Shown piece after piece: positions 20,372-56,418 of a stretch of 64,000 nucleotides of DNA (within the stretch, counting starts at the first letter, position 1; each line of letters begins with the position of its first letter). Origin of the DNA: an uncultured Clostridia bacterium (lineage in GTDB: Bacteria; Bacillota; Clostridia; TANB77; CAG-508); the NCBI GenBank assembly GCA_934180065.1, contig CAKPRA010000007.1, positions 1,963 through 65,962 of the forward strand. The letters run 5' to 3'. The notes below the pieces were generated by a model. The model did not search any database. It was not told the DNA's origin and was given only the letters and a program-made list of their open reading frames with translations. Both the position numbers and the translations under genes were made by a program.

Positions 20372-20511
20372 AAAATTGTAATATATTTCATATGACTGAT
20401 TTCCCTATATAAAAATGGATATTTATATATAAAAGCAAAATTGTTAATTTTAATTTAATAAGTATAATAAAAAATAGCAAAATAAATAATAATTTTTTGG
20501 GGGTAAATCAC

Positions 20512-31974: not shown

Positions 31975-31993
31975 CTTAATAAAATTAAATAAA

Positions 31994-32023
31994 TGTATGA
32001 GATTACATTTGTAATCTCATACA
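31994..32023. other. Perfect 14-bp palindrome between the RCC1 gene and the TED adhesin gene (no downstream U-tract)
   Basis: TGTATGAGATTACA-TT-TGTAATCTCATACA, followed by GTAATAAAAAAA. Confidence 0.8.
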
Positions 32024-32082
32024 GTAATAAAAAAATGTCTTAGGAGCATTAATAATTTAAAATGCTTCAGAAAGGAGAAAAA

Positions 32083-35077: not shown

Positions 35078-35123
35078 AATTTAGGAATAAAGCGAAAATC
35101 TAGTTAGCTTATATTTTGATTTA

Positions 35124-35224
35124 TTTTTATATAATGGCAAAGTTTTATATATGAGTAGAATTTTATCTATAAGTAATGTTAAAAACTATATACTATATTA
35201 AAATAGATATTTCCTATTATATAA
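35124..35224. repeat. Module A copy 2
   Basis: TTTTTATATAATGGCAAAG...ATATTTCCTATTATATAAG, about 85% identical to 17901-18007. Confidence 0.8.
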
Positions 35225-35310
35225 GAGCCAGTAGTAGTTATATCCGTAATTAAAGAAGTTAGTAATATATTTTAGAATTTGATGTTACAATAAAAAAAAC
35301 AAAAAAAGAC

Positions 35311-35339
35311 TTTACATAATTTACAAAAAGTGTTATAAT
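35311..35339 (+). promoter_or_regulatory. Sigma-A promoter TTTACA-17-TATAAT (paralogous to 18639-18667)
   Basis: TTTACA 35311-35316, TATAAT 35334-35339. Confidence 0.75.
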
Positions 35340-35345
35340 GTCATC

Positions 35346-35363
35346 AAGGTGCAAATTGCACTG
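35346..35363 (+). promoter_or_regulatory. Conserved 5'-leader hairpin (AGGTGC-AAATT-GCACT)
   Basis: Paralog of 18674-18691. Confidence 0.6.
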
Positions 35364-35412
35364 TGTACGAAAATCCAAATACATATCTTAACTTTTTAAG
35401 GAGGAATCAGTA

Positions 35413-36327: not shown

Positions 36328-36336
36328 CTAAAAAAT

Positions 36337-36363
36337 GGGGAGCTTTGCTCCCTGTTTTTTTTT
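36337..36363 (+). terminator. Rho-independent terminator
   Basis: GGGAGC-TTT-GCTCCC followed by TGTTTTTTTTT. Confidence 0.85.
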
Positions 36364-36400
36364 GATCGATTAAATATATAACAATATTATTAATATTAGA

Positions 36401-36444
36401 AATTTGTAAAAAAATGTAAAACAAATGTAAAACAAATGTAATAT
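36401..36444. repeat. 11-nt phased repeat AAATGTAAAAC (4 units, outer ones degenerate) upstream of the 6,328-aa gene
   Basis: AATTTGTAAAA / AAATGTAAAAC / AAATGTAAAAC / AAATGTAATAT. Confidence 0.75.
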
Positions 36445-36501
36445 AAGCAAGAAAAATGCATTTCCGTAGGTATAGTTATAAATATTAAAAGAATTAAATT
36501 T

Positions 36502-36529
36502 TTGACCATAAATGAAAATGCATTAAAAT
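36502..36529 (+). promoter_or_regulatory. Candidate sigma-A promoter TTGACC-16-TAAAAT
   Basis: TTGACC 36502-36507, TAAAAT 36524-36529. Confidence 0.35.
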
Positions 36530-36564
36530 AATAAATAGTAATTTAAAAAACGGAGGAGAAATCT

Positions 36565-39500
36565 ATGAAAAAAAGAAAGAATATATTACTATTTATTATA
36601 TCAATTATAATTTTAGTAGGAATAATATTGTTTGGATTTCTGAATAATAATTTGGAAATAATTAATTTAAAAAAAGAAAAAGAAAATTTAGCATTGTCTA
36701 AAATTTCTGGAAGATATGTTAGAATGGTAGAAGAAATGGGAGATGGAGAATCTGTTGATGGAGAAATCAGAATCTATTCAGAAGGTACACCACCAGACGT
36801 AATTGCAGATAGAACATATGATTTTACTAATGGATATTGTATGCATCAGGGAGATACATTCAAGGGATATGTTCCTAAAGGAGATAATGTAAAATACGAA
36901 TCACAATATTCTGGGTACGAAAAATATGGTGGAAGTATTAGATGGCTATTTGATAATGTAGTACTATTTCCTAGCCCAGCAGATATTGATGAATATAAGT
37001 CAAGATTGGCATATATATTAAATTATGATACTATAAAGAAAATGGAAAACAATGAGATTTTTAGTGCTCAACAATATGCAGTGTGGCATTTTACAAATGA
37101 AGCTAAAACAGATGAATTAATACCAGAAGGAAATATTGGTGAATTAGCTAATAAATTGATAGAAAAAGCTGAAAAAAATTCAAATTACAGTGGAAATGGA
37201 GCTTCTACAACTATTACAGATAAATCTGATAAAAAATTAGAGAAAATAGGAAATGATTTTTGGATAGGTCCATATAATGTAAATAATAATGGAAAAATAT
37301 ATAAATTAACAATTGATAATACAACAATTAATGGAAAAATTGTAAAGATAGAATTATATACAGGAAAGAACTCTGGAAGTAAAATAGATAATGATTCATA
37401 TAGAACTCAAAGTGGTGATATATATATAAAAATTCCAGGCTCATTAAATAATAATTTTTCTGGAATATTAAGTCAAAAAAATAATTTTTCTGCAAGTATT
37501 GATTTAGACGATTATGCAACATCTACAAGATACTGGGAATGTGAAAGTAAAGGATATCAACCAGCAGTAACAATACAAAGAGAGCATAAGCCAATAAATA
37601 TATCAGCAACTGGAACATATAATGCACCAGACGGTGAATACCATATGAATATTGTAAAAAAAGCTATATGGGATACAAATACAGATAGTGAATCTGATAC
37701 AGCTGATAAATATAAAAATGCAATTGGTGATGCAAAGTTTGAAATAACACAAAGCGGAAAAAATTTCGCACAAACTAATAATGGAAAAACTAAAGATAAA
37801 GATGAATTAGTTAGTATATCTGGAAATATAGGAAGAATAGTATTCAATAATAACGGAAGTTATGGAGATGGAAGAATAAGTATAACAGAAGATAATTGGA
37901 GTAATGAAGATTACTATTCAATAAAGGAAATTGCAGCACCTGAGGGATATAGTAAAAATAATAGAGAGCTATATTTTGGAGTAACTAAGATATATGATTC
38001 TGAATCTAAAAAATATGTAATTAATCAAATCATTTGCTATAAAGATTCAAATTATAAAGATGTGATAACAAGTGTATCACCAGAAAAAGATGTTTCAAAG
38101 TGGATAAAAATTGGATTTAATGGGGAATTATTAAGTGAAAGTGAAAATAATTACGCAATTGCACTTGAGTTTAGAAAAAATGCTATTACAATCACATACA
38201 AAGATTATCCAGAAAGTTCGTATAATCTAAATATTGCCAAAAAATCTACGGATAGTACAATTGATTCTGCAAATGAATATAAAGACTGCTTAGAAGGCGC
38301 GATATTTGAAATTAAACAAAATAGAAATGATGGAAGTGGAATACATAATGGTTTCTCTATAAATCCAACAGCAGAGAATAAAAACAATGAGAGCGCATTT
38401 GATCATGATTCTGATGGAAATCGTATTGTAAAAACATGGAAAGGAACTCTTGCTAAATTAGCTTTTGATGGTCATGGAAGTGATTCTGATGGTAATGTAA
38501 AAGTAGATGGAGATAACTATAATAAGGAAGATATTTATACTGTAAAAGAAATAAAATCACCTAATGGCTATACAAATGAAGGTAGAGAATTAAAATTTGG
38601 AATATTAAAAAAATTATCAGATGATAAGAAAAGCTATGTAATAGATAAAGTCAAATTTTATGGATTAAATGTTAGTTCAAATACAGTAATAAAAGAAGTA
38701 ACTTCTAATGGAAATAGACAATGGCTAAAGATTGATAAAAATGGTAATGTAGTTGATGAAAATAGTGATAATTATGTAATATCATTAGATTTTAATCAAA
38801 CAGCTATTAATGTAATATATAAAGATCCGGAAATAAAAGGAAACTATGACTTTAAATTAGCAAAACTTGATAGTGCAGACATTTCTAAAATAACTTCATT
38901 AGATGAATATGAAAAACTAAAATATGTTTCTGGAGTTGAATATGGAGTTTCACAATTAAGAGCATCTGTAGTATCTCCTGTAATTGGCGATAATAGAAAA
39001 ATAACAACTCAAGAAAGCCCAGTATCTATTCAAAAAGATGGAACTATTATAGGAAAAGATGTTATAAATAATATAATACATAATGGAAGTTCTGATTATG
39101 ATAATTATTTAATATATGAAACAAATAGTAAAGATGCAGGCTATGTAAAAAAAGATGTATCATTTAATATAGGTGTTTGCGTAACAATAGAAAATAACAA
39201 TACAGAAAATGCTAAATATGTTGTTAATAAAATAAAATGTTATAAAAATAAAAGTAATACTGGAGATCCTGATTGTGAAATTAATCAAGGTGAAAAATAT
39301 GTTGTATTAAATACCGGAAAATTTGTTAAATTAGAAGATATATTAAAATTAGATAAAAAACAAAGAGAAGACAAATTATTTACGGCTACGGCAATAATTG
39401 GGTTAGATAATAGTTCAACTATTTCTTATGTTGGTATAAATCAACAAATTACAGGAAATTATAAATTAAGACTAAAGAAAATATATAAAACAGATGATGG

Positions 39501-42500
39501 ATCAGAGATAGGAGTTAAAGGTATAAGTTTCAAAGTTAATAAGAAAATTAACGGAGAAAATGGTACTGGAACTAATTTTAATTTAGGTCCAACAGGAAAT
39601 AATGGTTATACAAATATATATACATCAAATATAACAAAAGATGATGTTAATAAAACAGATGTATATGAGATAAGTGAAATTGAAGATAGTAATGAAAACT
39701 TAATTCAATTAAAGAATCCTATAAAGATATTTGTAACTAAAAAATGTCAGAAATCACAGGGAAATAATGATTTAGAAGAGTATGTAATTGATAAAGCTTC
39801 ATTTGAATATGGAGATGAAGTAACTGAAGGAGAAACTTCTGAAACAGTGGCAACTCTTGAAGATGGAACTGAGGTATCTGTAAAAATGACTGTTAGCTCT
39901 TCAGGAGTATTAATTACAGTACCAAATAAATTAAATGGTCACTATAACTTAAATATTGGAAAAAAATCAACTGAAAATAATGAATATAAGAATAATAATG
40001 ATAGTGATTATATAGCTGGAGCAAAGTTTAATGTTGAGCAGTATTTAAATGTTAGTCAAAATATTAGTGATATAAATAATATTAATCCAAATAAAAGTGA
40101 CAGCATAGTTTCACAAAGTGGAAAATCTGTACCAGTTACTTTTAACAAAAATGCAAATATTGATATTGATAATACTGCATTAGTAGATAGATATAAAATT
40201 ACAGAAATGGAAGCACCAAAGGGATTTTCATTAAATAAGTCATTTAAAGATACGGGAACAAAAGATGGAATTTATTTGACAGTTACTAAAACTATGCAAG
40301 ATGGAGTTTATAAAATAAAAAATCTTTCATTAACTAGAATACAAAATGGAAATAGTTATGTAATTAAAGATGGTATAACTGATGATATTATTACTGTTGA
40401 TGATTATAATTGTAAAATAGTATGGAATAAAGATACAAATACTATAGACTTTATTATTGGTGATCCGGTTGCTAATGGAGAATATGATTTTAAAATAACA
40501 AAAACAGATGTTACTGGAGAAATTATAGACAGTGAGATAACTACATTTGATGTTGATGTTTATAGTCAAAAAAATGAATCAAATGGAAAAGTTTCATTTA
40601 GTAATCCAGTTTCATTAAAACATACAGATGGAACTAATGTTGAATTAAAAAATATTAAGGCAACTACTGGTGTTACAACAAATTTAAATAATATTAAAAT
40701 AGATACTAATGATATAGGTAAAACATATTACTTTGTAATTACTGAAACTCAGGCACCAGATGCATATTCAATGATTGATTATAAAGTTGTTGTTCCTGTA
40801 AAATATGTAGAGCAAGATGGAAAATATTATATTTCAAAAGATGAATCTTTTGCAGTAACAGCTGACAATACTAAACAATCATTAGAAAAAATGAGTTCAA
40901 ATGTAAATGAAGTAGTAAAAGTTGAACCTGATGAAGAGCTTGGAAATACTATTAATGTAAAGGTTCCTAATAAAATAAAGAAAGGAACATATACATTTAA
41001 ATTTTCAAAGGTAAATCCAGATAGAAAAATTATTGGAAGTACAAAGACAAGATTTAATCTTAATGTTTATGCAAAAATGACTGAAAATAGCAATAAAGTA
41101 TCATTTTCTGACTTAAGAAAACTTTATGATGTTAATAATAAAGAAATAATTACTACAGATTTAAAATGTACAATGGGGGTTTGTGGAACTGTTTCTAATA
41201 TTAAAATCGAGGAAGAAAGTATAGGAAAGACTTATTACTTTGTTTTGGAAGAAAATGAAGCACCAGAAGGATTTAATAAAATTGAATATAAAGTAGTAGT
41301 TCCTATAACTTATAAACAAAATGAAGATGGTTATTTTATTGAACATGGAGAACTATTTGCAGTAACAGCTGATGGTACTAAAAAAGCTATAAAAGATATT
41401 GATGAAATTGAGAGAGCTGAGGACTATTCAAATGCTAATAAACCAAGTATTGTTTTTGTAAAAGTTCCAAATACTCCTAAAGAAGGATCATATTCTTTAA
41501 ATATTGTTAAAACAAATTTAAATGGAAATACAAATAGTAAATTAAATGCTACATTTGATGTTAATGTGTATAAAACAAAAAACATAAATGGTAATAAAGT
41601 TGAATTTAGTAATGAGTATAAACCTTTAAAAGATACAGCAGATAATAATATTAAAACAACAGATTTAGTAACAGAAAATGAAAACACAATAAATATATCT
41701 GGAATAAAAATACAAAAAGCTGATGCAGGAAAAGAGTATTACTTTATAATTAATGAAAAAGTAGCACCAACTGGTTATAATGGAATTGATTATAAAATAG
41801 TAGTTCCAATAAGCTTCATTGAAAAAACAGTAGATGGAAAAACAGTTTATACAGCTAAAGTTGGAGAAGCTTTTGGATTAAAAAATTCATCAGGAGATAC
41901 TACAGTTTCTGGAGATATGATTAATCTAGATGATAGAGTTTCTATACCAAAAACAACTGACGGAATAATTAGTGTAACTGTTAAAAATAATCAGAAGAAT
42001 GGTGGATTTAAGTTAAATTTAGTTAAATATATTAAAGGTTCAACTGCTACATTACCTGGTGCTAAATTTAAAGTTACAATTAAAGATAATGGTACAGGTA
42101 AAAATATTTATAGTAAATCTGATTTAACAACAGATGGTGAAGGTAAAATACCTGAAATTACTGGATTGGATATTAGAAAGGAAAATGTTTCATATACTGT
42201 AACAGTAGAAGAAACTTATACTCCTGATGGATATTTAGGATTAAGTGGTCCAATTAAATTTACTGTTAAATCAAGATTTAATACAAATAAAGATGGATAT
42301 GAGTTAGTAGCAGCAAATCCAACAGTAGCAAATGCTAAAAAAGTTGAAGTAAAAAGTGGAGAAATATATATCGAAGCTGAAAACATTCCAGAGCCTTCAA
42401 TTCACAAAGGTGTAAAAACTGTGGAAAACCAAGATTCTGGATATTATGATAATGTTGAACATGATTGGGTAATTAACACAACTGTTCCAACTGGAATAAA

Positions 42501-45500
42501 TCAATTTACTAAATATTATGTGACTGATAAAATTGACGAAAGATTAGTATTTTCTAGAAATTCAGTTACTGTCAAAGTTATAGGTGGAAATAAATTAACA
42601 GCTGGAAAAGATTATAAAGCAAATTATGATTCAAATACTAGAGTATTGACAGTTTCATTTATAAATGATGATTTTGTAGCTGGAAAGAGCTTACCAGAAA
42701 ATTCTACAATTGAAATTAGATTTAAAACAACATTTGCTAAAGATGAAAATGGAAATATAAAAGCATTGGGTCAAGCTGTACCAAATCAAGCTGAATTAAC
42801 ATATTCTAATGATTCTGAAGAGCATAAAAAATATTCAGAAACTCCTGAAGTACATACAGGTGGAATTAAATTATATAAATTTGAAGATGAAAATGGAAAT
42901 GGACAATTTGATAATGGAGAGCTTAGCTTAGCAGGTGCTAGATTTAAAATTGCTTTGACTGAGCAAGATGCGCTTAATAAAAACTTTATTAAAATTAAAG
43001 ATAAAAATGGAAACAATACAGCAAATGATATTGTTGGAGAATCTAATAGTGAAGGTATAGTTGAATTTAAAGGCTTGGAATTTGGTGGAGATGCAAGCTC
43101 TAATGTTCAAAACAGGACTACTGATAAAACTACTCATGCTTTAGTTTATAATTATGATGAAACAAAAGTATCTTCAGATTTCTGGATTGTTGAAACATCA
43201 GCACCAGAAGGATATATTATTGATGAAACTCCTATTAGAGTGACTATAACAAAAGATAGCTATAATACAGAAATAGCATATATGCCTAAAAAAGCAAATA
43301 TTTCTATTAAAGGTGAATATTCTGTTAAATTAAGAAAAGTTAATAATCAGAATAATAATATTCAAAATGCTGAATTTAAAATCTTATCAAGTATTAGTAA
43401 AGCAACCAGAAGTTCAGTAAAAACAGATGCAAATGGTATTATTGATGTTTCTAATGGAAAAGTTAATATTATTGCAAATGATAAAAGTGAAGACGAGAAT
43501 TCTTCTACTGTTGGAAAAGCTGATTCATATGAAATTAAAGAGCTTTCTGCAAGTTCATATTTAATATTGAAAAACTCAATAAAGATTATTGTTAATAAAG
43601 AGCTTAATGAGGCTGGTGATAAGTACAGAGTAAGTAGTGTAGAGCTTAGTGAAACTGGAAGAAAGAATTCTACAACATTGATTGTTTCAGATACAAGTAA
43701 AACTGCTACTTTAAAAGGAGTGTTATTAGCTGATAATAAGAAAACGGTTGATGTTAAATTAAGTATTGATGGTAGTGATAACATTTTAGTAAATGTTCCA
43801 AATGATGACTTGGAAGGTGAATATAAGATTTCATTATTAAAGAAAAATAGTAATACAGGTGAAATATTAAAAGGAATACCATTTAATATAAATGGTACTG
43901 CAAGAGCAACAGATGAAAATGGAACATTAAGCATAACACAAGATAGAGAAGTTGATGGTAGTGTAAAAATTACTAGATCAAATGTTGGAACTCCTGATCA
44001 GTATGTAATTAAAGAAGAAACAAATGAAAAAACAAAATATGTTTCTATAATAGAATCACCTATTACTGTTAAAGTAAATAAAGGGGAAAACAAGAATAAG
44101 AATCAATATATTGTTAAATCTTTGGAAATTACAGCAACAAGTACTAGTGGAGAAAAGACAACAACAATAACAATTAATGAATCTACCAATACAGGTTCAG
44201 GTACATTTTTAGCTAAATGTACAGATGGTACAGATGTTAAATGTACTGTAAGGGCTGGAAGTTCAGGAATTACAATAGAGCTTGATAACCCAAGCAAGGC
44301 TGGTTCTTACAACTTTGACATAAATAAAGTTGTATTAAATGATAACGATGAAGAGCAAGGTCTAGAGGGAGTATCATTTAATGTTAATTTAAATGGATAT
44401 GAATATCCTTTATCAACAAACGCAAATGGATATACAGAAAATATAACAAAAGATATAACAAGTGACAATGTTGATAACAATGATGAATTTGTTATTAGTG
44501 AGTTAAGTACAACTCAAACAAATATTGTTCAATTAAAGAATAACTTGAAATTGATTGTTACTAAAGGTGTAAATAGCTCTAATAATGGATATGAAGTAAA
44601 AACTATGGAATTAGCTGAAGTTGATGCTAATAATCCACAAAATGTTATAAGAACAACTGGTGTAATTAATATTGATGATTGTTTGAATGATACAGAAAAA
44701 AGAGGTACATTATATCTTGAAAATGTTTTATTAAAAGATGGTAGATCTGTAAATATACGTTTAACAGCAAAAGGAAAGACTGGATTCCAAATTGGTATAA
44801 AAAATAGAACTATGACTGGAAATTATGTTGTTAAGATTAGAAAAGTTAACTCTGCAACAGGTGAATCTATAGAGGGTATTACATTCTTTACTTTACAAGA
44901 TAAGTATGAAGATTCATATGAAGCAACAACTGGAAGTGATGGTATTGCCGAACTAATAAATAAAAAGATAACTAATAATGAAGAAGAATATTACACAATT
45001 CTTGAAAAAGAATTACCAGATAATTTAAAAGATAAATTATTACAAATTACGGATTATGGATTATACCTAAATATAAAAACTAAAAAGAATGATGATAATT
45101 CTGGTTATTTGGTAGATAGTGTGGAAATGAGTTCAATTAAAATGCAAGATTGCGGTGATGAGGAATTATCTAACAGACAAAAAGAAATTATGGACAAAGC
45201 TACATATGATGTAAATGATAATGTTATTACTATAACAATCTATAATGAGCCACTTATTGATTATAACTTTAGAATATATAAAGTAAATAATAAAAATGAG
45301 GAACTTACAGAAGCTAAATTTACTATAAAAGAAGATGGAGTTACTATACTAGAAAATCAAAAATTAAGTGAAATTAATGGATTGATTTCTAGAGCAAAAC
45401 AGAAGATAAATACTGTACATACATATGATTTTTATGAAACAGAAGCACCTTTAGGATATGATAATATTTTCGAAAAGACATATTTAAGAATCACAATAAA

Positions 45501-48500: not shown

Positions 48501-51500
48501 GGTTGAGTATGACTTTAAATTGGAAAAACTTGATACTTCAAAGAAGCCATTATCTGGTACTCAAATTGAAGTTAATAGTAGTAAATCAGGTAAATATTAT
48601 ACAAATGGTAAATCAGAAATGAGCTTTAAAGAGCAAAATTTAAAACCAGGTGATATAATTACATATACTATCAGAGAAGTTCATACAGTAGCAAATAGTG
48701 CATATGTAAATAGATTTTATAATACTATTACTTATAAAGTTGAAGTAAAAGCTGATGGTACATTGGAACAAAAAGAAGCATATATTACAACTTCTGATGG
48801 AAATAAAAATTTAAGTGAAGTGAGATTCTTAGACTATGGTATATCAGGTACTAGTGGAAATCAAACTATTTACTTTAAATTGGAAAATCCAACTAAGATT
48901 AATGTTGAATTATTAAAAACACAAGCTGGAAAAGATGAATCTGCAATTTTAAATACAAACTTTACTATTAATAGTAGTTTGAGTGGTGACCATACTGAAA
49001 ATACAGATTCTAATGGATTAATAAACTTTACAGAAAGTTCTATTAAGCCAGGTGATTATACTTATAAAGTGTATGAAAATAAAGTTGCAAATCCAAACTA
49101 TGTCAACGTATTAGATGGCATGTATATGGAGGTTAATGTTTCAGTTAGTGCTGCTGGATTAATTACAATCAATAGCACAAAATATTATTATAAAGAAAAT
49201 AATGTAGAGATAACAAATGAAAGTCTATTAACAAAATTAAGAAAATATGCAACTGCAACAGTTGATGATTCTGCAAGTGTTAAAAAATTAAAATTTGTTG
49301 TTAAGGACCCTGTTACATTTGAATTTAAGGTATTTAAACATACAACTGGAAATGAAAAACTTGAAAATGTTAAATTTAAAATTACAAGTCCTTTATCTGG
49401 AGAGCAAACTGCAACAACTGATTCAAATGGATATATAACTGTTGATAGTGATAAATGGGTTGAACCAGGTGTTTATAAATATGAAATTACAGAGCTTGAA
49501 ACTATAGGAAAACAATATGATAATATTTTAGATGGATATAAGGTTGTAGTATATTTAAAAATTAGTAACACTGGATTAATTTCTCTTGTTAAAGATGCTA
49601 ATGGAACAGCATTTACTAAAAATGATAAATATAAATATTCTATTGAAAAGATAGATGGTTCTGATGTAAGCAGTGAAGCTTCTGATATTATTCATAAATA
49701 TATTACGGTTACTCCTACAGAAGTTAAAGATGCAAAAGATAAAGTAACTGTTTCTGTAGCTAATACAACAGGATACAATATGGATATTATTAAGAAAGAT
49801 TCTGCCGGAAATAAAGTTTCAGGATCTAAGTTTACAGTAATAAGAAACAAAACTGTTAAATTATTAGATAATGAAGATGTAACTTCTGATAAAGAAATTA
49901 CTGAGAGAGATTTATCACAAGGAAATTATACATTTGATATTACTGAAAATAGTGCTCCAGAAGGTGCATATATAAATATATTAGATGGAAAATTCATTAG
50001 AGTATATACATATTTAAGTGATAAAGGTGTATTGGATATTAGAAATTCTTCTGGTACAGTTTCAAATAATTATTTTGAGATATATGAAGGAGATATTACT
50101 AATACATCAAAAGCTAAATTATTAGATAAAAATGATGCAAATTATAAATATTTATATAATTTAATCAGTGTTAATGCACAAGATAAAGACAAAGACGGAA
50201 TCTATACTATAGATGTTTCTGTAATAAACCCTGTAAATATCAATGTTGAAGTATTGAAAAAACAATATGGAACAGGCGGTAAGGGAATTGCTAAGACAGA
50301 ATTTACAATTAGTAGAGATGAAAATAATAAACATGAAAACGTATTTACAAATAATAGTGGTATATATGATTTCACAGAAGAGCGAATAGCACCAGGGGAT
50401 TATACTTATACTGTAAAAGAGCTATCTCCTGCAAGTGGTAAGTATGTAAACATCTTGAAAGATAGATATATGGAAGTATATATTAATGTTAATGCTAAAG
50501 GTGAAATAACTGTTAAGGGATATGAATTATTTAGTAAAGAAGGAACCAAACTTTCTTCTGAGATTAAAAATGAGATTTCTAAATATATTGCAATTAGTGT
50601 TAATAAAAGCTCTGAAACTCAAAAATTAGTGATTACAATTTATAACCCTACAACAATGACTTTTGACTTGTATAAGAGCGATATTGATAATAAACCTTTG
50701 GCAAATGCTAAGTTTAAAATTTCAAGAACACTTGTAAAAGTATATGCCAATAATAAAACTACAAAAGATATTAATGAACTTGAAACTACAACTGATAAGT
50801 TAGGTAAAGCTTTATTGAATAATGATAAAATTCTTGATCCAGGTATTTATAAATATGAAATTACTGAGTTAAATGCTCCAGGAAATCAATATGTAAATAC
50901 ACTTGAAAATATTAAAGTTGTTATCTATGTAAAACTAGCTTTAAATGGTAATGTTTCAATTGTGGCAAACAATAGTGGTACAGAATTTAAATCTGACACT
51001 GTATATAAATATTATGTTTTGAATTCTGATAATTCTGTTGCAAGTAAAGAAGTTCAAGATTTAGTTCATAAATACTTTACTGTTACAACAGAGCAACAAA
51101 ATAATTCTATAGGTGGAATAAAATGTGATGTTATAAATCCTATAAGATATAAAGTCGATATTATTAAAAATGACGAAAGAGCAAAACCATTGAGTGGTAC
51201 TAAATTCTCAGTAGTTAGAGATGATGGTATTAAGGTCCTTGATAATGCTGAAATTACAACAGATGTTGAGATTGAAGAAAATTATATTGAACAAGGTGAC
51301 CATGTATACTATATTACAGAAAATAGTACTGTTCCGGGATATATTAATAAACTTAAAGGTATGTTTATAAAAGCATATATTAATGTAAGTGCACAAGGTG
51401 TGGTTACAGTTAATAAATACGAAATTTATAAAGGTACAGTTGAGGATATTAGTAAATCAGTATTACTTGATAAAAATAAAAACTTAGAATTGTACAATTT

Positions 51501-54500
51501 AATTGGTGTTGAAAGTGTTGTAAATGATAATGTTTATACATTAAATGTTAAAGTTACAAACCCAGATTTAACATATAATTTGTTAATTAATAAAAAGATT
51601 TTTGGAAATGAAGAAATTAATTTAGCAAATACTAAGTTTACAGTTATAAGAATAAATGAAAGTAATTCTGAGAAGAAAACTTATACAAATAAAGTTACTG
51701 ATAAAAACGGAAATATTTCAATATTGCAAGAAAGAATTCCTGCTGGAATATACAAATATTTGATAACAGAAACAAGAACTTCTGGAAATCAATTTGTAAA
51801 TATTTTCGCAAATAGTACATATGTTGTGGTTAGATTAAAAGTAAATGAGGATGGAACAATAAAAATTCTAGACGAAAATGGTAATGTTAGTGAAGATGCT
51901 TATGATGTGTATAGACAAAAAGCTAATACATCAGTCTTAGAAAAAATTGATTCTAAGGATACTGTTATTAATAAGTCTGTGGTAAGAGTTGGTATAACTA
52001 CAAATAATAACAATGTCCCTGAACTAGATATATTTGTTAAGAATCCTGAAAAATATAACTTTAATTTAGTTAAAATTGACAGTAGTACAAAAGAAAAATT
52101 AAATAATGTTAAATTTAGTTTAACAGTTTATGAAGGCGAAAATGTTATTAAATTAAAGAATGCAAATACATTTAAAGAAATAAATACTAATGAATTAGTA
52201 ACTAAAAATGTAAACGGAAAAGATGGTTATATAAGTATTAAAGATATATTAATCGAAAAATCTGGTAAATATACATTTGTATTACATGAAGAGTCAACTG
52301 ATGGATTGTTCGAGAAAATATATAAAACACACGGATCTGATATTAAGGTCACTGTGGAAATTGCAGTTCAAAATGGTGAGTACATTATTAAGAAACCTGT
52401 AATCACACAAGGTTCAAAATATGTGGATTCACTAGATGTAACATCAACAAAATCACAAACTGCAACTGTTGAAGTTATTAATACACCAATGACTGGATCT
52501 TATGAATTAGTTATCGATAAATTAGATAGCTATACTGAGAAAAACCTAAAAGGTGCTGAATTTGATATATCTGTAGAAAAAGATGGTAAACCTTATGAGC
52601 TATATAAAGCAAATGATGATTTAACAATAAATGAAGTAATTTTACCAAAATCAGTTAAAGTCAATGGTGAATTAACAATACCAAATATAAGAATTGATAG
52701 ACCTGAAACTTATACTATAATACTTAAGGAAACTAAAGCACCTACTGGTTATATGCTATTAGATGCTCCAATAAAGATTAAAGTTACAACAGGTAGAAGC
52801 GGTTCTTATGATGACGAAAAATTCATTGTTGAATCTATTGAATTAATTGATGATAATAATCATGGATTAGTTACAGCAGATAACGGTGATGAGTCAATTC
52901 ATATAACAGCTAAAAACGAATATTTCGATTTAGCATTAAGAAAATCTATCACATCTGTTGCTTACAGTGATAGAGAAGAAGCAAAGATTACTGAAGAGGA
53001 AACTAAAGACAGAGTTCCAATTGTTGAATCTAAGAATTTAATTGAAAATGATAAGGTTACAACAGCAGATTACAACCATGTTAAGAACCATGTTAGAGGT
53101 TATAATTCTCAAGAAGTAATATTTACATTAAGAGTTTATAATGAAGGCGAAATTGATGGATATGCTGAAGAAATTACAGATCACTTACCAGAAGGTTTAG
53201 AGTTTGTAAATGATAGCTTTAATGCAGAATATGGCTGGAAATTAGATTCATCAGATACTTCATTAAGAACTATTAAAACAACATATTTATCTAAGGATAG
53301 TAATCCAAATAATGATAAATATAATTCTAAAAATAACTTAATTAAGGCTATGGATAAAACAACTGGAAAGATTGACTTTAAAGAAATCCAAGTTAAATGT
53401 AAAATTTCTGAAGATGTTAAAGTAGGTACAATACTTACAAACATTGCAGAAATTAGTAAGAGCAAGGCAAATAATAGAACAGCTGAAACTGTTGATATTG
53501 ATTCTACAACAAATAATGTCAAGGTTCCAGAAACTTCAGAAGGAATGGAACAATATAATGAAGATAAATTGACAGATGATAGAAACAAATATGTTCCTGG
53601 ACAAGAAGATGATGATGACTTTGAAAAGATTATTGTTGATGAATTCGACTTAGCTTTAAGAAAATATATTACTGAGATTAATGATGAAAAAGTTATTGAA
53701 GATAATGGGGATTCAATAGACGAAGACAGTCCTGCTAGATATGCAAGAGCGCCTATAGTAAATGTTGATTCATTGAAGGATGGCACAAGCACGACTGCTA
53801 AATATGATCATCCAAAAGATCCTGTTGAGGTTTCTGTTGGAGATATAGTAACATATACATTAAGAGTCTATAATGAGGGTACAGTATCTGGATATGCATC
53901 ATTAATTAAAGATGATATACCTGAAGGATTAGAATTTGTAACATATGATAAAGGTGATGGAAGTACAAATGATATCTATAGATGGAAAATGGTCAATGAA
54001 AATGATGAAGAGGTAACAGATCCTAGTGAAGCTAAATATGTAGTATCAGATTATCTATCAAAAGATAATGAGAAAACAGAATTTGGCAATTTGATTAAAG
54101 CATTTGATCATGACACAATGAGTACACTAGATTCTAAGTATGTAAAAATTGCATTTAGAGTTGTATGTAAACAAGATTATCCAAAAATTATAACAAATGA
54201 AGCTCAAATTTCTGATGATTCAGATGAATCAGGAAAATCTGTAATAGACAGAGATTCTACTCCAAATGAGTGGCTTGATGAAGATGATGAAGATGTTGAG
54301 CACATTAAAGTAACATATATGGACTTGGCATTAAGAAAGTTCATTACAGGTGTAAATAGTGAAGAGGTAACTAATAGAGTTCCTGTCGTTGATGCTACAG
54401 CATTAAAGGACGAAACTGGAACAACAGCAGATTATAAACATACAAAAGAGCCAGTTTTAGTTCATACAAATGATACTGTAATCTATACTTTGAGAGTTTA

Positions 54501-55551
54501 TAATGAAGGAAGCAAAGATGGTTATGCTACACAAATTAAAGATGATATACCACAAGGTTTAGAATTCTTACCTAATAATGAAATAAATAAACAATATGGT
54601 TGGGCTCTTGTTGATGAAAATGACAAGGTTGTAACAAATATTGAAAATGCTAAATATATAGTTACAAATTATCTATCAAAAGATAATGAAACAGAAGAAA
54701 GAAATAATTTATTAAAAGCATTTGATGGTACAACAATGGAAACACCTGATTATAGAGATGTTAAAATAGCATTTAAAGTAATCGAACCAACAACATCAGA
54801 TAGAATTATAATAAACTATGCTCAAATAAGTGAACAAACTGATAAGAAGGGTGTTCATAGAGAGGATAGAGATTCTACTCCAAATAAATGGCTTGGAGAA
54901 GATGATGAGGATATCGAAAAAATTAGAGTTCAATATTTTGACTTAGCCCTAAGAAAATGGGTAACAAAAGCTATCGTTGTTCAAAATGGAAAAGAAAATG
55001 TAACAGAAACAGGACACCATGCTGAAGATGATCCTGAAGCTATAGTAAAAGTTGATCTAAAGAAGAGCAAGATAAATTCTGTTGTAGTTAAATTTGAATA
55101 TAAGATTCGTATCACTAATGAAGGCGAGATTGAGGGATATGCTAAAGAAATAAAAGATCACATTCCTGAAGGATTGAGATTTGAAGCATCTGATAATCCT
55201 ACATGGACACAAATAAGTGACAATATCATTGTAACTGATGAACTTAAAGATACTTTACTAAAACCTGGAGAAAGTGCAGAAGTAACTGTTGTATTGACAT
55301 GGATTAATTCTGGAACTAACTTAGGTGTAAAAGTAAATATTGCTGAAATTAGTGAAGATTACAATGAATATGGTACTGATGATATTGATTCAACACCAGA
55401 TAACTTTGTTGATGGTGAAGATGATATAGATGATGCTCCAGTAATGTTAACTGTAAAAACTGGACAAGAAAATCTAGCTTATACGATGTTAGCATTAGCT
55501 GTAATAACTGTCTTAGGATTAGGAATTCGCGGTATCAAAAAAATGAAATAA
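36565..55551 (+). CDS. Giant (6,328 aa) cell-surface adhesin: N-terminal signal/anchor, thioester domain, dozens of Cna-B-like stalk units, pilin-like central module, four C-terminal DUF11 + acidic modules, VKTG sorting-like signal
   Basis: Single uninterrupted 18,987-nt ORF. RBS GGAGGA. TED motifs NGYCMHQG (Cys92, nt 36838-36840) and SAQQYAVWHFTN (Gln170, nt 37072-37074). Repeated units (Y/F).F.(L/I).K.D....L.GA.F.V....G..Y.Y.I.E..AP.GY. C-terminus DDAPVMLTVKTG-QENLAYTMLALAVITVLGLGI-RGIKKMK. Confidence 0.9.
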   Translation: MKKRKNILLFIISIIILVGIILFGFLNNNLEIINLKKEKENLALSKISGRYVRMVEEMGDGESVDGEIRIYSEGTPPDVIADRTYDFTNGYCMHQGDTFKGYVPKGDNVKYESQYSGYEKYGGSIRWLFDNVVLFPSPADIDEYKSRLAYILNYDTIKKMENNEIFSAQQYAVWHFTNEAKTDELIPEGNIGELANKLIEKAEKNSNYSGNGASTTITDKSDKKLEKIGNDFWIGPYNVNNNGKIYKLTIDNTTINGKIVKIELYTGKNSGSKIDNDSYRTQSGDIYIKIPGSLNNNFSGILSQKNNFSASIDLDDYATSTRYWECESKGYQPAVTIQREHKPINISATGTYNAPDGEYHMNIVKKAIWDTNTDSESDTADKYKNAIGDAKFEITQSGKNFAQTNNGKTKDKDELVSISGNIGRIVFNNNGSYGDGRISITEDNWSNEDYYSIKEIAAPEGYSKNNRELYFGVTKIYDSESKKYVINQIICYKDSNYKDVITSVSPEKDVSKWIKIGFNGELLSESENNYAIALEFRKNAITITYKDYPESSYNLNIAKKSTDSTIDSANEYKDCLEGAIFEIKQNRNDGSGIHNGFSINPTAENKNNESAFDHDSDGNRIVKTWKGTLAKLAFDGHGSDSDGNVKVDGDNYNKEDIYTVKEIKSPNGYTNEGRELKFGILKKLSDDKKSYVIDKVKFYGLNVSSNTVIKEVTSNGNRQWLKIDKNGNVVDENSDNYVISLDFNQTAINVIYKDPEIKGNYDFKLAKLDSADISKITSLDEYEKLKYVSGVEYGVSQLRASVVSPVIGDNRKITTQESPVSIQKDGTIIGKDVINNIIHNGSSDYDNYLIYETNSKDAGYVKKDVSFNIGVCVTIENNNTENAKYVVNKIKCYKNKSNTGDPDCEINQGEKYVVLNTGKFVKLEDILKLDKKQREDKLFTATAIIGLDNSSTISYVGINQQITGNYKLRLKKIYKTDDGSEIGVKGISFKVNKKINGENGTGTNFNLGPTGNNGYTNIYTSNITKDDVNKTDVYEISEIEDSNENLIQLKNPIKIFVTKKCQKSQGNNDLEEYVIDKASFEYGDEVTEGETSETVATLEDGTEVSVKMTVSSSGVLITVPNKLNGHYNLNIGKKSTENNEYKNNNDSDYIAGAKFNVEQYLNVSQNISDINNINPNKSDSIVSQSGKSVPVTFNKNANIDIDNTALVDRYKITEMEAPKGFSLNKSFKDTGTKDGIYLTVTKTMQDGVYKIKNLSLTRIQNGNSYVIKDGITDDIITVDDYNCKIVWNKDTNTIDFIIGDPVANGEYDFKITKTDVTGEIIDSEITTFDVDVYSQKNESNGKVSFSNPVSLKHTDGTNVELKNIKATTGVTTNLNNIKIDTNDIGKTYYFVITETQAPDAYSMIDYKVVVPVKYVEQDGKYYISKDESFAVTADNTKQSLEKMSSNVNEVVKVEPDEELGNTINVKVPNKIKKGTYTFKFSKVNPDRKIIGSTKTRFNLNVYAKMTENSNKVSFSDLRKLYDVNNKEIITTDLKCTMGVCGTVSNIKIEEESIGKTYYFVLEENEAPEGFNKIEYKVVVPITYKQNEDGYFIEHGELFAVTADGTKKAIKDIDEIERAEDYSNANKPSIVFVKVPNTPKEGSYSLNIVKTNLNGNTNSKLNATFDVNVYKTKNINGNKVEFSNEYKPLKDTADNNIKTTDLVTENENTINISGIKIQKADAGKEYYFIINEKVAPTGYNGIDYKIVVPISFIEKTVDGKTVYTAKVGEAFGLKNSSGDTTVSGDMINLDDRVSIPKTTDGIISVTVKNNQKNGGFKLNLVKYIKGSTATLPGAKFKVTIKDNGTGKNIYSKSDLTTDGEGKIPEITGLDIRKENVSYTVTVEETYTPDGYLGLSGPIKFTVKSRFNTNKDGYELVAANPTVANAKKVEVKSGEIYIEAENIPEPSIHKGVKTVENQDSGYYDNVEHDWVINTTVPTGINQFTKYYVTDKIDERLVFSRNSVTVKVIGGNKLTAGKDYKANYDSNTRVLTVSFINDDFVAGKSLPENSTIEIRFKTTFAKDENGNIKALGQAVPNQAELTYSNDSEEHKKYSETPEVHTGGIKLYKFEDENGNGQFDNGELSLAGARFKIALTEQDALNKNFIKIKDKNGNNTANDIVGESNSEGIVEFKGLEFGGDASSNVQNRTTDKTTHALVYNYDETKVSSDFWIVETSAPEGYIIDETPIRVTITKDSYNTEIAYMPKKANISIKGEYSVKLRKVNNQNNNIQNAEFKILSSISKATRSSVKTDANGIIDVSNGKVNIIANDKSEDENSSTVGKADSYEIKELSASSYLILKNSIKIIVNKELNEAGDKYRVSSVELSETGRKNSTTLIVSDTSKTATLKGVLLADNKKTVDVKLSIDGSDNILVNVPNDDLEGEYKISLLKKNSNTGEILKGIPFNINGTARATDENGTLSITQDREVDGSVKITRSNVGTPDQYVIKEETNEKTKYVSIIESPITVKVNKGENKNKNQYIVKSLEITATSTSGEKTTTITINESTNTGSGTFLAKCTDGTDVKCTVRAGSSGITIELDNPSKAGSYNFDINKVVLNDNDEEQGLEGVSFNVNLNGYEYPLSTNANGYTENITKDITSDNVDNNDEFVISELSTTQTNIVQLKNNLKLIVTKGVNSSNNGYEVKTMELAEVDANNPQNVIRTTGVINIDDCLNDTEKRGTLYLENVLLKDGRSVNIRLTAKGKTGFQIGIKNRTMTGNYVVKIRKVNSATGESIEGITFFTLQDKYEDSYEATTGSDGIAELINKKITNNEEEYYTILEKELPDNLKDKLLQITDYGLYLNIKTKKNDDNSGYLVDSVEMSSIKMQDCGDEELSNRQKEIMDKATYDVNDNVITITIYNEPLIDYNFRIYKVNNKNEELTEAKFTIKEDGVTILENQKLSEINGLISRAKQKINTVHTYDFYETEAPLGYDNIFEKTYLRITIKIDDKGKVTADYKVAPNREVGGTISDMLHTNAIIKEYKEASDNNEILHDNLDNSFTLHIPNPVATASIKFELNKHTLGTTDSIDGVGFDIRRLYIENEQSYNYTDITNMFDNDQNGIVGLKSITTSSQISNINIDNIKDINVGDTYYYELTENSGKFLAKYKKVIVRIHVNKDKTIVSNIIAVYGIKDGDNTNSWFTEINSDYASISQNNTNTILSLANTAGYAVIVNKKQFVSVVPKDSNGNILWTGMQGLSGAIFTIKEVENDGTEKIVNNSSNEPINNKVCTGSFAWSRTDATTSKRYHYTIRENSSPDGYINIFDGVTIHVYITIKSDGTVDDSDTATYYELEFDSGISEEDKASKTEYLKDKIGINLQNNTINLNILNKKDTINLAVKKISDKKDSSGKSIPLNNIKFSIRDTFAQDVRDIITNVDGYAEDTKQISIPQDSIFSYYIEETEVPSGITMLKNTRIIVSVDATNLTSASQLTSDRLTVSLSKTGEGGLSDVSELPGLKVGIEGNTVVLTVPNETETYLFNMYKVDENNNIIKSETGKVGAKFKVDRLISVDDNGSESYFTLLNNVLKNGSLSESNIIDADKVYKYRISEISSKTGYINVLQGYDLFVYVKADSQGKNIKDVPETYYILSKKDGENQLYSEDEIRSYIDLSVADNVVNLYIKNPYAYKFEINKKNLAGTTDVDKAVITGDRIANVSEDLTNANKTLLKQIVDASEKNDSTGDSEKYIAQTIKLDKKTSIISGNIEIKENVTQTWRITENSVELPYVNILKDKYLIVQTVYSKNNGLKLVSHQETINNENKSVNYYVSDKDGNNVTAELYEYLNVETVQVNGIWTLSVTVKDPVMYEVDLTKVEYNPNGKNESDYKQMKGAELSLTNSNNGESAEITKNGEAKTRALSVETSLGDLSKRTFEIRELSTIVNHKNILENVVVYVTTSLTEDGTLNYSVILKDNTGKTITGTEETNILEYIKFFEGTNADGYKVLHVYVENPVEYDFKLEKLDTSKKPLSGTQIEVNSSKSGKYYTNGKSEMSFKEQNLKPGDIITYTIREVHTVANSAYVNRFYNTITYKVEVKADGTLEQKEAYITTSDGNKNLSEVRFLDYGISGTSGNQTIYFKLENPTKINVELLKTQAGKDESAILNTNFTINSSLSGDHTENTDSNGLINFTESSIKPGDYTYKVYENKVANPNYVNVLDGMYMEVNVSVSAAGLITINSTKYYYKENNVEITNESLLTKLRKYATATVDDSASVKKLKFVVKDPVTFEFKVFKHTTGNEKLENVKFKITSPLSGEQTATTDSNGYITVDSDKWVEPGVYKYEITELETIGKQYDNILDGYKVVVYLKISNTGLISLVKDANGTAFTKNDKYKYSIEKIDGSDVSSEASDIIHKYITVTPTEVKDAKDKVTVSVANTTGYNMDIIKKDSAGNKVSGSKFTVIRNKTVKLLDNEDVTSDKEITERDLSQGNYTFDITENSAPEGAYINILDGKFIRVYTYLSDKGVLDIRNSSGTVSNNYFEIYEGDITNTSKAKLLDKNDANYKYLYNLISVNAQDKDKDGIYTIDVSVINPVNINVEVLKKQYGTGGKGIAKTEFTISRDENNKHENVFTNNSGIYDFTEERIAPGDYTYTVKELSPASGKYVNILKDRYMEVYINVNAKGEITVKGYELFSKEGTKLSSEIKNEISKYIAISVNKSSETQKLVITIYNPTTMTFDLYKSDIDNKPLANAKFKISRTLVKVYANNKTTKDINELETTTDKLGKALLNNDKILDPGIYKYEITELNAPGNQYVNTLENIKVVIYVKLALNGNVSIVANNSGTEFKSDTVYKYYVLNSDNSVASKEVQDLVHKYFTVTTEQQNNSIGGIKCDVINPIRYKVDIIKNDERAKPLSGTKFSVVRDDGIKVLDNAEITTDVEIEENYIEQGDHVYYITENSTVPGYINKLKGMFIKAYINVSAQGVVTVNKYEIYKGTVEDISKSVLLDKNKNLELYNLIGVESVVNDNVYTLNVKVTNPDLTYNLLINKKIFGNEEINLANTKFTVIRINESNSEKKTYTNKVTDKNGNISILQERIPAGIYKYLITETRTSGNQFVNIFANSTYVVVRLKVNEDGTIKILDENGNVSEDAYDVYRQKANTSVLEKIDSKDTVINKSVVRVGITTNNNNVPELDIFVKNPEKYNFNLVKIDSSTKEKLNNVKFSLTVYEGENVIKLKNANTFKEINTNELVTKNVNGKDGYISIKDILIEKSGKYTFVLHEESTDGLFEKIYKTHGSDIKVTVEIAVQNGEYIIKKPVITQGSKYVDSLDVTSTKSQTATVEVINTPMTGSYELVIDKLDSYTEKNLKGAEFDISVEKDGKPYELYKANDDLTINEVILPKSVKVNGELTIPNIRIDRPETYTIILKETKAPTGYMLLDAPIKIKVTTGRSGSYDDEKFIVESIELIDDNNHGLVTADNGDESIHITAKNEYFDLALRKSITSVAYSDREEAKITEEETKDRVPIVESKNLIENDKVTTADYNHVKNHVRGYNSQEVIFTLRVYNEGEIDGYAEEITDHLPEGLEFVNDSFNAEYGWKLDSSDTSLRTIKTTYLSKDSNPNNDKYNSKNNLIKAMDKTTGKIDFKEIQVKCKISEDVKVGTILTNIAEISKSKANNRTAETVDIDSTTNNVKVPETSEGMEQYNEDKLTDDRNKYVPGQEDDDDFEKIIVDEFDLALRKYITEINDEKVIEDNGDSIDEDSPARYARAPIVNVDSLKDGTSTTAKYDHPKDPVEVSVGDIVTYTLRVYNEGTVSGYASLIKDDIPEGLEFVTYDKGDGSTNDIYRWKMVNENDEEVTDPSEAKYVVSDYLSKDNEKTEFGNLIKAFDHDTMSTLDSKYVKIAFRVVCKQDYPKIITNEAQISDDSDESGKSVIDRDSTPNEWLDEDDEDVEHIKVTYMDLALRKFITGVNSEEVTNRVPVVDATALKDETGTTADYKHTKEPVLVHTNDTVIYTLRVYNEGSKDGYATQIKDDIPQGLEFLPNNEINKQYGWALVDENDKVVTNIENAKYIVTNYLSKDNETEERNNLLKAFDGTTMETPDYRDVKIAFKVIEPTTSDRIIINYAQISEQTDKKGVHREDRDSTPNKWLGEDDEDIEKIRVQYFDLALRKWVTKAIVVQNGKENVTETGHHAEDDPEAIVKVDLKKSKINSVVVKFEYKIRITNEGEIEGYAKEIKDHIPEGLRFEASDNPTWTQISDNIIVTDELKDTLLKPGESAEVTVVLTWINSGTNLGVKVNIAEISEDYNEYGTDDIDSTPDNFVDGEDDIDDAPVMLTVKTGQENLAYTMLALAVITVLGLGIRGIKKMK
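36790..37110 (+). other. Core of putative thioester domain (Cys...Gln pair)
   Basis: (Y/W)C(M/L) and Q.(A/V)(V/I)W.(F/Y)TN motifs are conserved between this protein and the 964-aa paralog. They match the published TQxA(I/V)W signature of Gram-positive TED adhesins. Confidence 0.55.
40483..42000 (+). repeat. Three tandem ~168-aa units (starts 40483, 40990, 41491)
   Basis: YDFKITKTDVTGEII.../YTFKFSKVNPDRKII.../YSLNIVKTNLNGNTN..., each ending ...KVPN..K.G. They share GKTYYFV(I/L)(T/E)E..AP..(Y/F)..I(D/E)YK(V/I)VVP(V/I). Confidence 0.8.
48898..51570 (+). repeat. Higher-order tandem duplication: two ~1.34-kb super-units (48898-50238, 50239-51570), each made of three stalk units
   Basis: INVELLKTQAGKDES...PGDYTYKVYENK... 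is collinear with INVEVLKKQYGTGGK...PGDYTYTVKELS... over ~445 aa. DNA segments such as 49455-49560 vs 50833-50940 are visibly similar. Confidence 0.75.
52921..55440 (+). repeat. Four tandem DUF11-like modules, each followed by an acidic DRDSTPN.WL.EDDED segment
   Basis: Units begin (F/M)DLALRK(S/Y/F/W) at about 52924, 53644, 54318 and 54938. Each contains Y(T/K)(L/I)R(V/I)(Y/T)NEG..(D/S/E)GYA..I.D.(L/I)P(E/Q)GL(E/R)F. Confidence 0.8.
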
Positions 55552-56012: not shown

Positions 56013-56418
56013 ATTTCTTTTTTTACATATAAATTCATGTGAAAATAATGCAAGATATAATTTTTTAGAGAATGCTCTGAAATAGGGTGTTCTCTATTCT
56101 TATTGCGAAAAAACTTGAAAAAATTATGAGTTGTAAGTGAAAATATCCAAAATTATGCAATAAAAAGCAAACAAATATTGACTTTTATCTAATACCATGA
56201 TTTAATACCAATTATAAAAATCTGATTTTAACAATTTTATAAATAATAAATTCAATAAAAATTTTAAATTCAAAAAATTTAGAATCAAAGTGTAAAAATT
56301 CTATACACAAAACTTTCAAAATACTATTATATTATGAGAATAATATGAATTTTCAAAAAATAAAACTTTTCAAAATATTTGAAACAAAACAACAAATATG
56401 TTAGAATTGAGGTGATAA

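Follow-up and report, generated by a model that had tools for sequence, protein, structure and literature searches.

In the thioester domains (TEDs) of the thioester/isopeptide (TIE) adhesins, the reactive cysteine lies in a [YFL]CΦζ motif, and a late β-strand contributes the glutamine to which it bonds, as part of a weak ΦQζΦΦ motif (PMC6194298, Miller et al. 2018; PMC4450167, Walden et al. 2015). A further, helical motif, TQxxΦW, places a Gln and a Trp on α2 next to the bond; both are dispensable for thioester formation, and in the solved Class I and Class II TEDs both hydrogen-bond the Cys backbone (PMC6194298; PMC4450167). In Class II TEDs, strand Q supplies the bonding Gln, and the Cys-Gln spacing is 171 residues in SaTIE and 204 in EfmTIE86 (PMC6194298), while the thioester pair of TIEpLS20 is Cys68/Gln256 (PMC8092201). 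Among stalk domains, the CnaB type forms its isopeptide from a Lys/Glu/Asn(Asp) triad (table in PMC12617251), and the CLIPPER (DUF11) domain, structure 9IFR, from Lys/Asp/Asn (PMC12617251). Here, we describe a single 19-kb gene, at 36565-55551 of a 64,000-nucleotide stretch of contig CAKPRA010000007.1 from an uncultured Clostridia bacterium (GenBank assembly GCA_934180065.1; the whole stretch is called the window below). Its product, referred to as the giant, is very likely a cell-surface fibrillar adhesin of the TIE type with a Class II-type TED, its chemistry being predicted from sequence and structural modeling. As such it is a very large addition to a known class of adhesins and introduces no new principle.

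An earlier note on this DNA had reported one uninterrupted open reading frame (ORF) with a hydrophobic N-terminus, and this was borne out. The frame runs for 6,328 codons on the + strand, and the protein begins with the hydrophobic sequence MKKRKNILLFIISIIILVGIILFGFL, of which aa 1-27 are a candidate Sec signal peptide or membrane anchor. The two sequence motifs quoted in that note were also found, NGYCMHQG holding Cys92 and SAQQYAVWHFTN holding Gln170. The gene, its N-terminal segment, and the elements of the head domain are as follows.

36565..55551, + strand: giant adhesin gene, 6,328 codons plus stop, product 707.5 kDa (~708 kDa), pI (isoelectric point) 5.0
36565..36645, + strand: N-terminal basic and hydrophobic segment, aa 1-27, read from the sequence, with relatives similar
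36700..37599, + strand: predicted thioester domain, aa 46-345, Class II-like, from Pfam TED, an AlphaFold2 (AF2) model, and Foldseek
36838..36840, + strand: codon of Cys92 (NGYCMHQG), the predicted thioester Cys, [YFL]CΦζ motif, invariant in 19/19
37072..37074, + strand: codon of Gln170 (AQQYAVW), the predicted neighbour of the thioester but no partner in it, invariant in 25/25
37558..37560, + strand: codon of Gln332 (GYQPAVTI), predicted to form the thioester, kept in 21/22 relatives

The assignment of the N-terminal domain as a TED, which was the central proposal of the earlier note, is supported by profile matches and by the modeled fold. The Pfam TED profile PF08341 matched aa 91-204 at 25.7 bits (gathering cut-off 22; E = 1.6e-5), and 10 of the 15 members of the subfamily gave independent matches to it. 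Word-index homologue searches of 5.8 billion proteins with the head returned the window's own fragments only, and 13 head relatives emerged when HMMER was run exhaustively over 1.84 billion representatives. In a 15-sequence head alignment, with identities to the giant of 24 to 46%, nine columns were invariant, including Cys92, Gln170, and Trp174. An AF2 model based on two window sequences only was unusable, with a predicted local distance difference test score (pLDDT) of 41, and was replaced by a model from the 15-sequence alignment, which reached a pLDDT of 85.8 and a predicted template modeling score (pTM) of 0.85. This model comprised a β-barrel carrying Cys92 at the end of a β-strand, a helical bundle, a β-sandwich insert of ~110 aa, and a long terminal β-hairpin, with helices to model residue 159, β-strands at 171-281, and the hairpin at 263-281/289-299. 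The position of the ~110-residue β-sandwich between the helical bundle and the long terminal hairpin is the hallmark of Class II. In Class II TEDs the sandwich follows helix α3, and a hairpin of strands P and Q comes back to the head lobe as a slipknot; the order of secondary-structure elements in the model fits this arrangement. When the model was compared to the PDB with Foldseek, the nine best matches were all TEDs (probability 0.89-1.00); the best were the Class II domains EfmTIE86 (6fwy; E = 5.8e-9) and BaTIE (6fwv; E = 3.6e-7), followed by the Class I domain CpTIE (5a0g; E = 1.4e-3), with Cpa lower in the list.

Several results weighed against this assignment. The TIGR03934 (TQXA) model, which the earlier note had also pointed to, remained below threshold on the giant (17.1 bits; cut-off 30.4), and the helix motif reads AQQYAVW, not TQxA(I/V)W. 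Searches of PDB sequences with the head sequence and profile gave only chance matches (EF0647 and factor V) and no solved TED, and a local hhalign alignment of the head to TIEpLS20 covered the Q..W helix motif only (E = 0.41). The TM-scores of the model to solved TEDs were low, at 0.35 to 0.40; the Foldseek alignments extended over >310 columns with a probability of 1.00, and the low TM-scores are attributed to differing lobe orientations and to the larger insert. Judged by its sequence, the giant head belongs to a divergent TED subfamily with no solved relative detectable at that level.

The conservation of individual residues was counted among the relatives covering each column (n = 19 for Cys92, 25 for Gln170, and 22 for Gln332). 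The earlier note had asked that Cys92 and Gln170 be conserved in homologues, and both were found to be invariant (19/19 and 25/25); the residue before the Cys is Trp in part of the subfamily (GYCMH in the giant). It had further proposed that these two residues form the thioester at a spacing of 78 residues, shorter than usual, and that the domain may be a compact variant. In favor of such a compact TED, with Cys92 bonded to the Gln of a TQxA(I/V)W-type motif, are the invariance of both residues and their spatial closeness, expected by analogy with solved TEDs. However, Gln170 lies within helix 117-132 of the model and belongs to the helical TQxxΦW motif, so the 78 residues separate the Cys from the helix motif, much as 66 residues do in TIEpLS20, and are not the thioester spacing. 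In characterized TEDs the motif Gln on α2 is dispensable and a late β-strand Gln makes the bond (PMC6194298; PMC4450167). Since the motif Gln is expected near the Cys without bonding to it, adjacency of Cys92 and Gln170 in a model does not discriminate between the two assignments. A late Gln is present in the giant at position 332, where the last long β-hairpin of the model begins or turns, the place from which strand Q provides the bonding Gln in Class II TEDs; its surroundings, YQPAV, fit the ΦQζΦΦ motif, and it was kept in 21 of 22 relatives, with Glu in the sole exception, the distant relative P0037. Given a functional thioester, Gln332 is thus the likely partner of Cys92, as judged from its conservation and its position in the model, and the Cys92-Gln170 bond, which is highly improbable, appears to have been a misassignment. 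The Cys92-Gln332 spacing would be 240 residues, above the 171 and 204 of the Class II TEDs, and the model appears to hold the complete Class II layout and is not truncated; rather than a compact domain, the giant head is predicted to be an enlarged TED of Class II type.

The same conservation bears on whether a bond is formed at all. The head might have a TED fold without a thioester, or bind non-covalently only, in which case the giant would be a conventional fibrillar adhesin or a spacer. The bond is a prediction from fold and motifs, and the Glu of P0037 at the Gln332 column indicates that loss of the bond occurs in the wider family. At identities of 24 to 46%, however, Cys92 and both Gln residues are invariant or nearly so, as very few other positions are, and this pattern suggests selection on the chemistry. 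A head without a thioester is accordingly considered unlikely, and the TED of the giant is treated below as one with a predicted Cys92-Gln332 bond.

C-terminal to the head, iterative searches within the giant with hidden Markov models (HMMs) delineated 31 CnaB/SpaA-like units with periods of 130 to 284 aa, mostly 140 to 180. Two arrays of such units flank a central module, and four larger domains and a C-terminal tail follow.

37639..42006, + strand: first array, eight CnaB/SpaA-like units, aa 359-1814, from unit HMMs, with profile matches to pilin and BaTIE CnaB domains
41896..43299, + strand: central pilin-like module, aa 1778-2245, aligning at 43% identity with residues 276-747 of a short paralogue in the window, with an NF033902 match
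43318..52971, + strand: second array, 21 CnaB/SpaA-like units, aa 2252-5469, from unit HMMs
52921..55434, + strand: four CLIPPER (DUF11) domains, aa 5453-6290, from Pfam DUF11, TIGR01451, and alignment
55435..55548, + strand: sorting-signal-like tail, APVMLTVKTG, hydrophobic stretch, and RGIKKMK, from the sequence; TIGR01167 14.1 bits

The stalk alignment took in 27 units, with a mean column identity of 20%. Only two positions were invariant, Lys9 on the first strand ('Y.Φ.Φ.K') and Glu60 ('Y.Φ.E'), and a 'V.NP' column near the unit end held Asn in 22 units and Asp in the other 5 (27/27). The unit profile matched solved CnaB domains (the pilin domain 4oq1, 2e-8; Lactobacillus rhamnosus SpaA; the BaTIE CnaB domain), which brought the Lys and the E-box Glu into register, and the Pfam SpaA family (PF17802) matched stalk units with the Lys and Glu likewise aligned. 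Each unit continues 50 to 70 residues past the canonical SpaA domain of ~90 aa. A super-repeat of three units, ~450 aa in length, was apparent within aa 4100-5100 of the second array, and the NCBIfam match in the central module, NF033902, corresponds to SpaH/EbpB-type pilins. By their sequence, the stalk units are CnaB/SpaA-type domains carrying the Lys/Glu/Asn(Asp) triad, with the isopeptide bonds predicted; in domains of this type the Lys comes from the first strand, the catalytic Glu from a YxΦxE box, and the Asn or Asp from the last strand.

The CLIPPER domains, of ~205 to 240 aa each, form the C-terminal base of the stalk. They scored 48.2 bits with DUF11 (PF01345) and 97.6 bits with TIGR01451; a search of PDB sequences with the C-terminal 898 aa returned no match. 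Three residues, K9 (DLALRK), D76, and N136 (N.A.IS), did not vary among the four units or in the paralogue, and this Lys/Asp/Asn triad matches that of 9IFR. The units also carry acidic DxDST...EDDxD motifs. The description of the stalk in the earlier note, as very long and built of dozens of isopeptide-type units of ~150 to 170 aa, is therefore upheld by the 31 units, mostly of 140 to 180 aa, together with the four of ~205 to 240 aa, and by the conservation of Lys, Glu, and Asn/Asp in the aligned units.

The tail is read as a non-canonical sortase signal, on the strength of its sequence. It has the classical three-part layout, and giant-type tails were also found on two other window ORFs, 8478-9908 and 32183-35077, and on ~20 relatives, in which the motif varied among VKTG, IKTG, VTTG, IRTG, VQTG, and IPKTG. 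A competing explanation is that the C-terminal transmembrane (TM) helix alone anchors the giant, the VKTG then being a linker that is conserved without serving as a sortase site. Consistent with this, the tail, with its TVKTG motif, scored below the cut-off of TIGR01167, the LPXTG anchor model (14.1 versus 15.9 bits); no sortase family was matched among the window ORFs scanned with Pfam; and the conserved block reaches upstream to DDIDDAPVML, beyond a pentapeptide. Each of these counts against the reading of the tail as a sortase substrate. Set against them, besides the three-part layout, most relatives retain xxTG through changes of this kind, and a giant protein of otherwise unrelated sequence in a sister species ends in SVKTG, a TM segment, and a basic tail. 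In addition, the window encodes an LPKTG protein (16364-17839; TIGR01167 31.5 bits), and sortase anchoring therefore probably operates in this organism. Anchoring by the helix alone is possible, though we regard it as distinctly the less probable. The occurrence of VKTG-type and LPKTG tails in one window suggests, at the level of sequence, two sorting specificities in one organism.

As a separate observation, a lineage-specific tail of the form (S/T)(V/I)KTG, TM segment, and basic end was common to otherwise unrelated surface proteins, namely those encoded at 8478-9908, 32183-35077, and 36565-55551 and the sister-species giant at L005:2-9220, on a sheep-ileum metagenome-assembled genome (MAG).

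Taken together, the domain order suggests how the giant may function. The protein would be exported via its N-terminal signal and attached to the envelope by MLTVKTG, the hydrophobic helix, and the basic end, either through a sortase of non-canonical specificity or simply through the TM helix. Some 36 β-sandwich domains (31 CnaB/SpaA-like units, the pilin-like module, and 4 CLIPPER domains) would then form a stalk with an estimated length of 150 to 200 nm, most of them presumably self-locked by an intramolecular Lys-Asn(Asp) isopeptide bond. At its tip, the stalk would present the Class II-type TED with its predicted internal Cys92-Gln332 thioester, flanked by the helix-motif Gln170 and by Trp174. 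Attack on the thioester by a target nucleophile, in most cases the amine of a lysine, would join that nucleophile covalently to Gln332.

Because the window derives from short-read assemblies of Hadza gut metagenomes, the gene or its repeat count might be an artefact of collapsed, expanded, or chimeric repeats, and the earlier note had raised collapse or expansion as a concern. The repeats proved to be old and diverged. Stalk units are ~20% identical at the protein level, the longest exact DNA repeat inside the ORF was 22 nt, and the best extended repeat was 92 nt at 78% identity, so an assembler would have had nothing to collapse. Tandem Repeats Finder reported only trivial arrays in the gene, and a collapsed-repeat artefact was rejected on these grounds. 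In an independent assembly from another sample (L003, a contig of 15.5 kb), window positions 30793-43394 (12.6 kb) were reproduced without gaps at 99.96% identity, and the giant gene was open for 3,229 codons (its first 9.7 kb) up to the contig end. The remainder is less directly covered: an identical independent copy of the second half, after ~nt 46251, was searched for and none was found, a point that counts against the gene as assembled. That search instead gave relatives of 4,593 to 4,952 aa, encoded on contigs as long as 439 kb and having head, stalk, and tail as in the giant, and the large size is thus a feature of the family; relatives with 21 to 24 units match the giant colinearly at either end. 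Moreover, in a chimera a frame of 6,328 open codons would be very improbable (P ~10^-287 at 43% A and 30% T, where a stop is expected at about 1 in 10 codons), and the five other frames across the ORF contain 206 to 1,221 stops each. An assembly artefact, in the gene or in its repeat count, is consequently very unlikely.

The signals around the gene, all but the first of them candidates by consensus, were as follows. Promoter-like sites in the region were not more numerous than in shuffled sequence, and the site listed is therefore a candidate only.

36552..36558, + strand: ribosome-binding site GGAGGAG, six bases 5' of the ATG at 36565
36502..36529, + strand: promoter-like site TTGACC-16-TAAAAT, 36 nt upstream of the ATG, 10/12 matches, candidate
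56066..56096, + strand: terminator-like hairpin, ~500 nt downstream of the stop codon, consensus match only

The window also holds a much shorter gene of the same type, upstream of the giant gene.

32083..35077, + strand: short paralogue with TED, CnaB unit, pilin-like module, CLIPPER domain, and VKTG tail, from alignments; frameshifted at 32188-32197

The motifs AGWCLYHGG and AEQKVIWEYTN, quoted earlier for the ORF at 32183-35077, are present as given. The paralogue aligned with giant residues 49-365 (24% identity; E = 8e-11) with the Cys and the helix-motif Gln in register, and three colinear blocks could be followed along the two proteins: the head at 24% identity, the central module at 43%, and the final CLIPPER domain plus tail at 64%. 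From these blocks, the giant looks like an adhesin of the paralogue type expanded by 8- and 21-unit CnaB-like arrays. The true start of the paralogue is the ATG at 32083, from which the signal peptide (MKIKKIVLITIITSL...) is out of frame with the rest and runs into a stop. Comparison with the orthologue P0006 (…DKSGFFD…) suggests a 2-nt deletion ('AG') at GATAAG|CGGC (32188-32197). The frameshift was also present in L003, where the gene is further split near 33394, and the short paralogue is probably a decaying pseudogene.

Relatives approaching the giant in size were found in gut metagenomes, among them P0017 (4,952 aa), P0022 (4,782 aa), P0025, and P0016. These four share the TED subfamily head, the stalk unit types, the four CLIPPER domains, and a ...DDIDDAPVML(T)(V/I)KTG tail, and are 42 to 45% identical to the giant over the C-terminal 2,500 aa; they have 21 to 24 CnaB-like units, compared to 30 to 31 in the giant. 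A further TED subfamily member (E = 5.5e-21, family HMM) was observed downstream of dnaB in the sheep-rumen MAG RGIG6622 (L035:19194-21338), where it runs off the end of the locus.

Some of these stalks were observed with other heads. Between P0017, whose head is a TED, and P0019, everything that follows the head-stalk junction (4,663 aa, reaching to the C-terminus) is 91% identical, while their N-terminal domains of ~260 to 330 aa are unrelated. Unrelated heads on a P0017-like stalk were seen in P0018-P0021 and P0023 (the 91% having been measured for P0019), and the set also includes P0024, P0026, and P0031. The P0019 head had no Pfam match, and that of P0024 matched NlpC/P60 marginally (22.9 bits; cut-off 23).

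It is conceivable, though we put this forward only tentatively, that the giant belongs to a modular adhesin family in which a conserved, covalently locked stalk and a lineage-specific (V/I)KTG anchor serve as a chassis for heads exchanged by recombination. Stalk length would be adjusted as CnaB-like units are gained, from 21 up to 31, and the giant would be the covalent adhesin of longest reach in the set, processed by a sortase of new specificity. The exchanged heads would be the enlarged, divergent Class II thioester domain or an NlpC/P60-like or unknown head.

The host belongs to an uncultured Clostridia lineage of low GC content (27%); comparison of its DnaB gave 91% identity with the protein of a sheep-ileum MAG and 78% with the one from Candidatus Merdicola. 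The giant gene lies in an island of surface-protein genes, encoding proteins with BspA-type leucine-rich repeats (LRR), MucBP, RCC1, and dockerin domains and a GH5 cellulase, which adjoins dnaB-tilS-ftsH. An orthologue at the same locus in the closest species was looked for and rejected: the sheep-ileum MAG (RGIG5739) has an unrelated giant gene beside dnaB. That gene (L005:2-9220), just upstream of dnaB, encodes a giant surface protein of >3,073 aa with no BLAST similarity to the giant described here. The locus upstream of dnaB looks like a hot spot at which variable giant adhesins are encoded. A gene for a PD-(D/E)XK family transposase (PF12784; 56419-57231), located between the giant gene and dnaB, is consistent with variability of the locus.

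Elsewhere in the window, 20497-31974 encodes a 3,825-aa secreted protein with RCC1-like β-propeller repeats and SpaA domains, in which no C-terminal anchor was seen, and 906-8384 encodes a 2,492-aa secreted protein with BspA-type LRR and SpaA domains and a low-complexity acidic tail. Two adjacent ORFs of ~230 aa (14778-15464 and 15619-16338) had no Pfam match; each begins with a TM segment, followed by 'ALFTSTKKD' or 'AISNTIENT', and we take these N-termini to resemble signal peptides of the SipW/TasA type (camelysin-like). Two dockerin-containing proteins and the GH5 cellulase (18729-20264, 35413-36327, and 10417-11628) are interleaved with the adhesin genes, which hints at a cellulosome-like or fibre-attached lifestyle.

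To our knowledge, work on thioester adhesins has been confined almost entirely to pathogens and a conjugative plasmid. The giant is encoded by an uncultured commensal living in hunter-gatherer guts and would widen the range of covalent adhesion to include gut commensals. With ~35 self-locking domains predicted in 708 kDa, it may represent a natural extreme for force-bearing stalks, and its diverged isopeptide domains are a possible source of protein-ligation tools. The lesson for annotation is that the glutamine of TQxxΦW should not be assigned as the thioester partner.

The closest known systems are the Class II TIE proteins, represented by BaTIE of Bacillus anthracis (6FWV), EfmTIE86 of Enterococcus faecium (6FWY), SaTIE, and TIEpLS20. 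Like the giant, they consist of an N-terminal TED, CnaB-type domains, and a C-terminal anchor, and, as the model predicts for the giant head, a β-sandwich is inserted between the helical bundle and the terminal hairpin; their motifs [YFL]CΦζ, Q..ΦW, and late ΦQ are all present in the giant. The differences are mainly of scale and detail. The giant, at 6,328 aa, is five to twelve times longer than these proteins of ~560 to 1,220 aa, its predicted Cys-Gln pair is 240 residues apart, versus 171 to 204, and the modeled β-sandwich insert is larger. The helix motif reads (Q/E)Q in place of TQ, its stalk units carry a C-terminal extension of 50 to 70 aa on the canonical SpaA domain of ~90 aa, CLIPPER domains are present at the stalk base, and the tail is VKTG instead of LPXTG; the head shows no match to solved TEDs at the sequence level. 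With the Class I TEDs (SfbI, Cpa, and CpTIE of Clostridium perfringens, 5A0G), the giant shares the core TED lobe and presumably the Cys-Gln/amine chemistry. CpTIE and Cpa were weaker fold matches, and in Class I a linker of ~10 residues stands where the giant has its β-sandwich of ~110 residues (PMC6194298). The isopeptide-stalk fibrillar adhesins, with SpaA/CnaB or CLIPPER (9IFR) domains, use the same Lys/Glu/Asn and Lys/Asp/Asn triads (PMC12617251); in those proteins the units are nearly identical to one another, whereas the giant combines 31 + 4 units of ~20% identity in one polypeptide.

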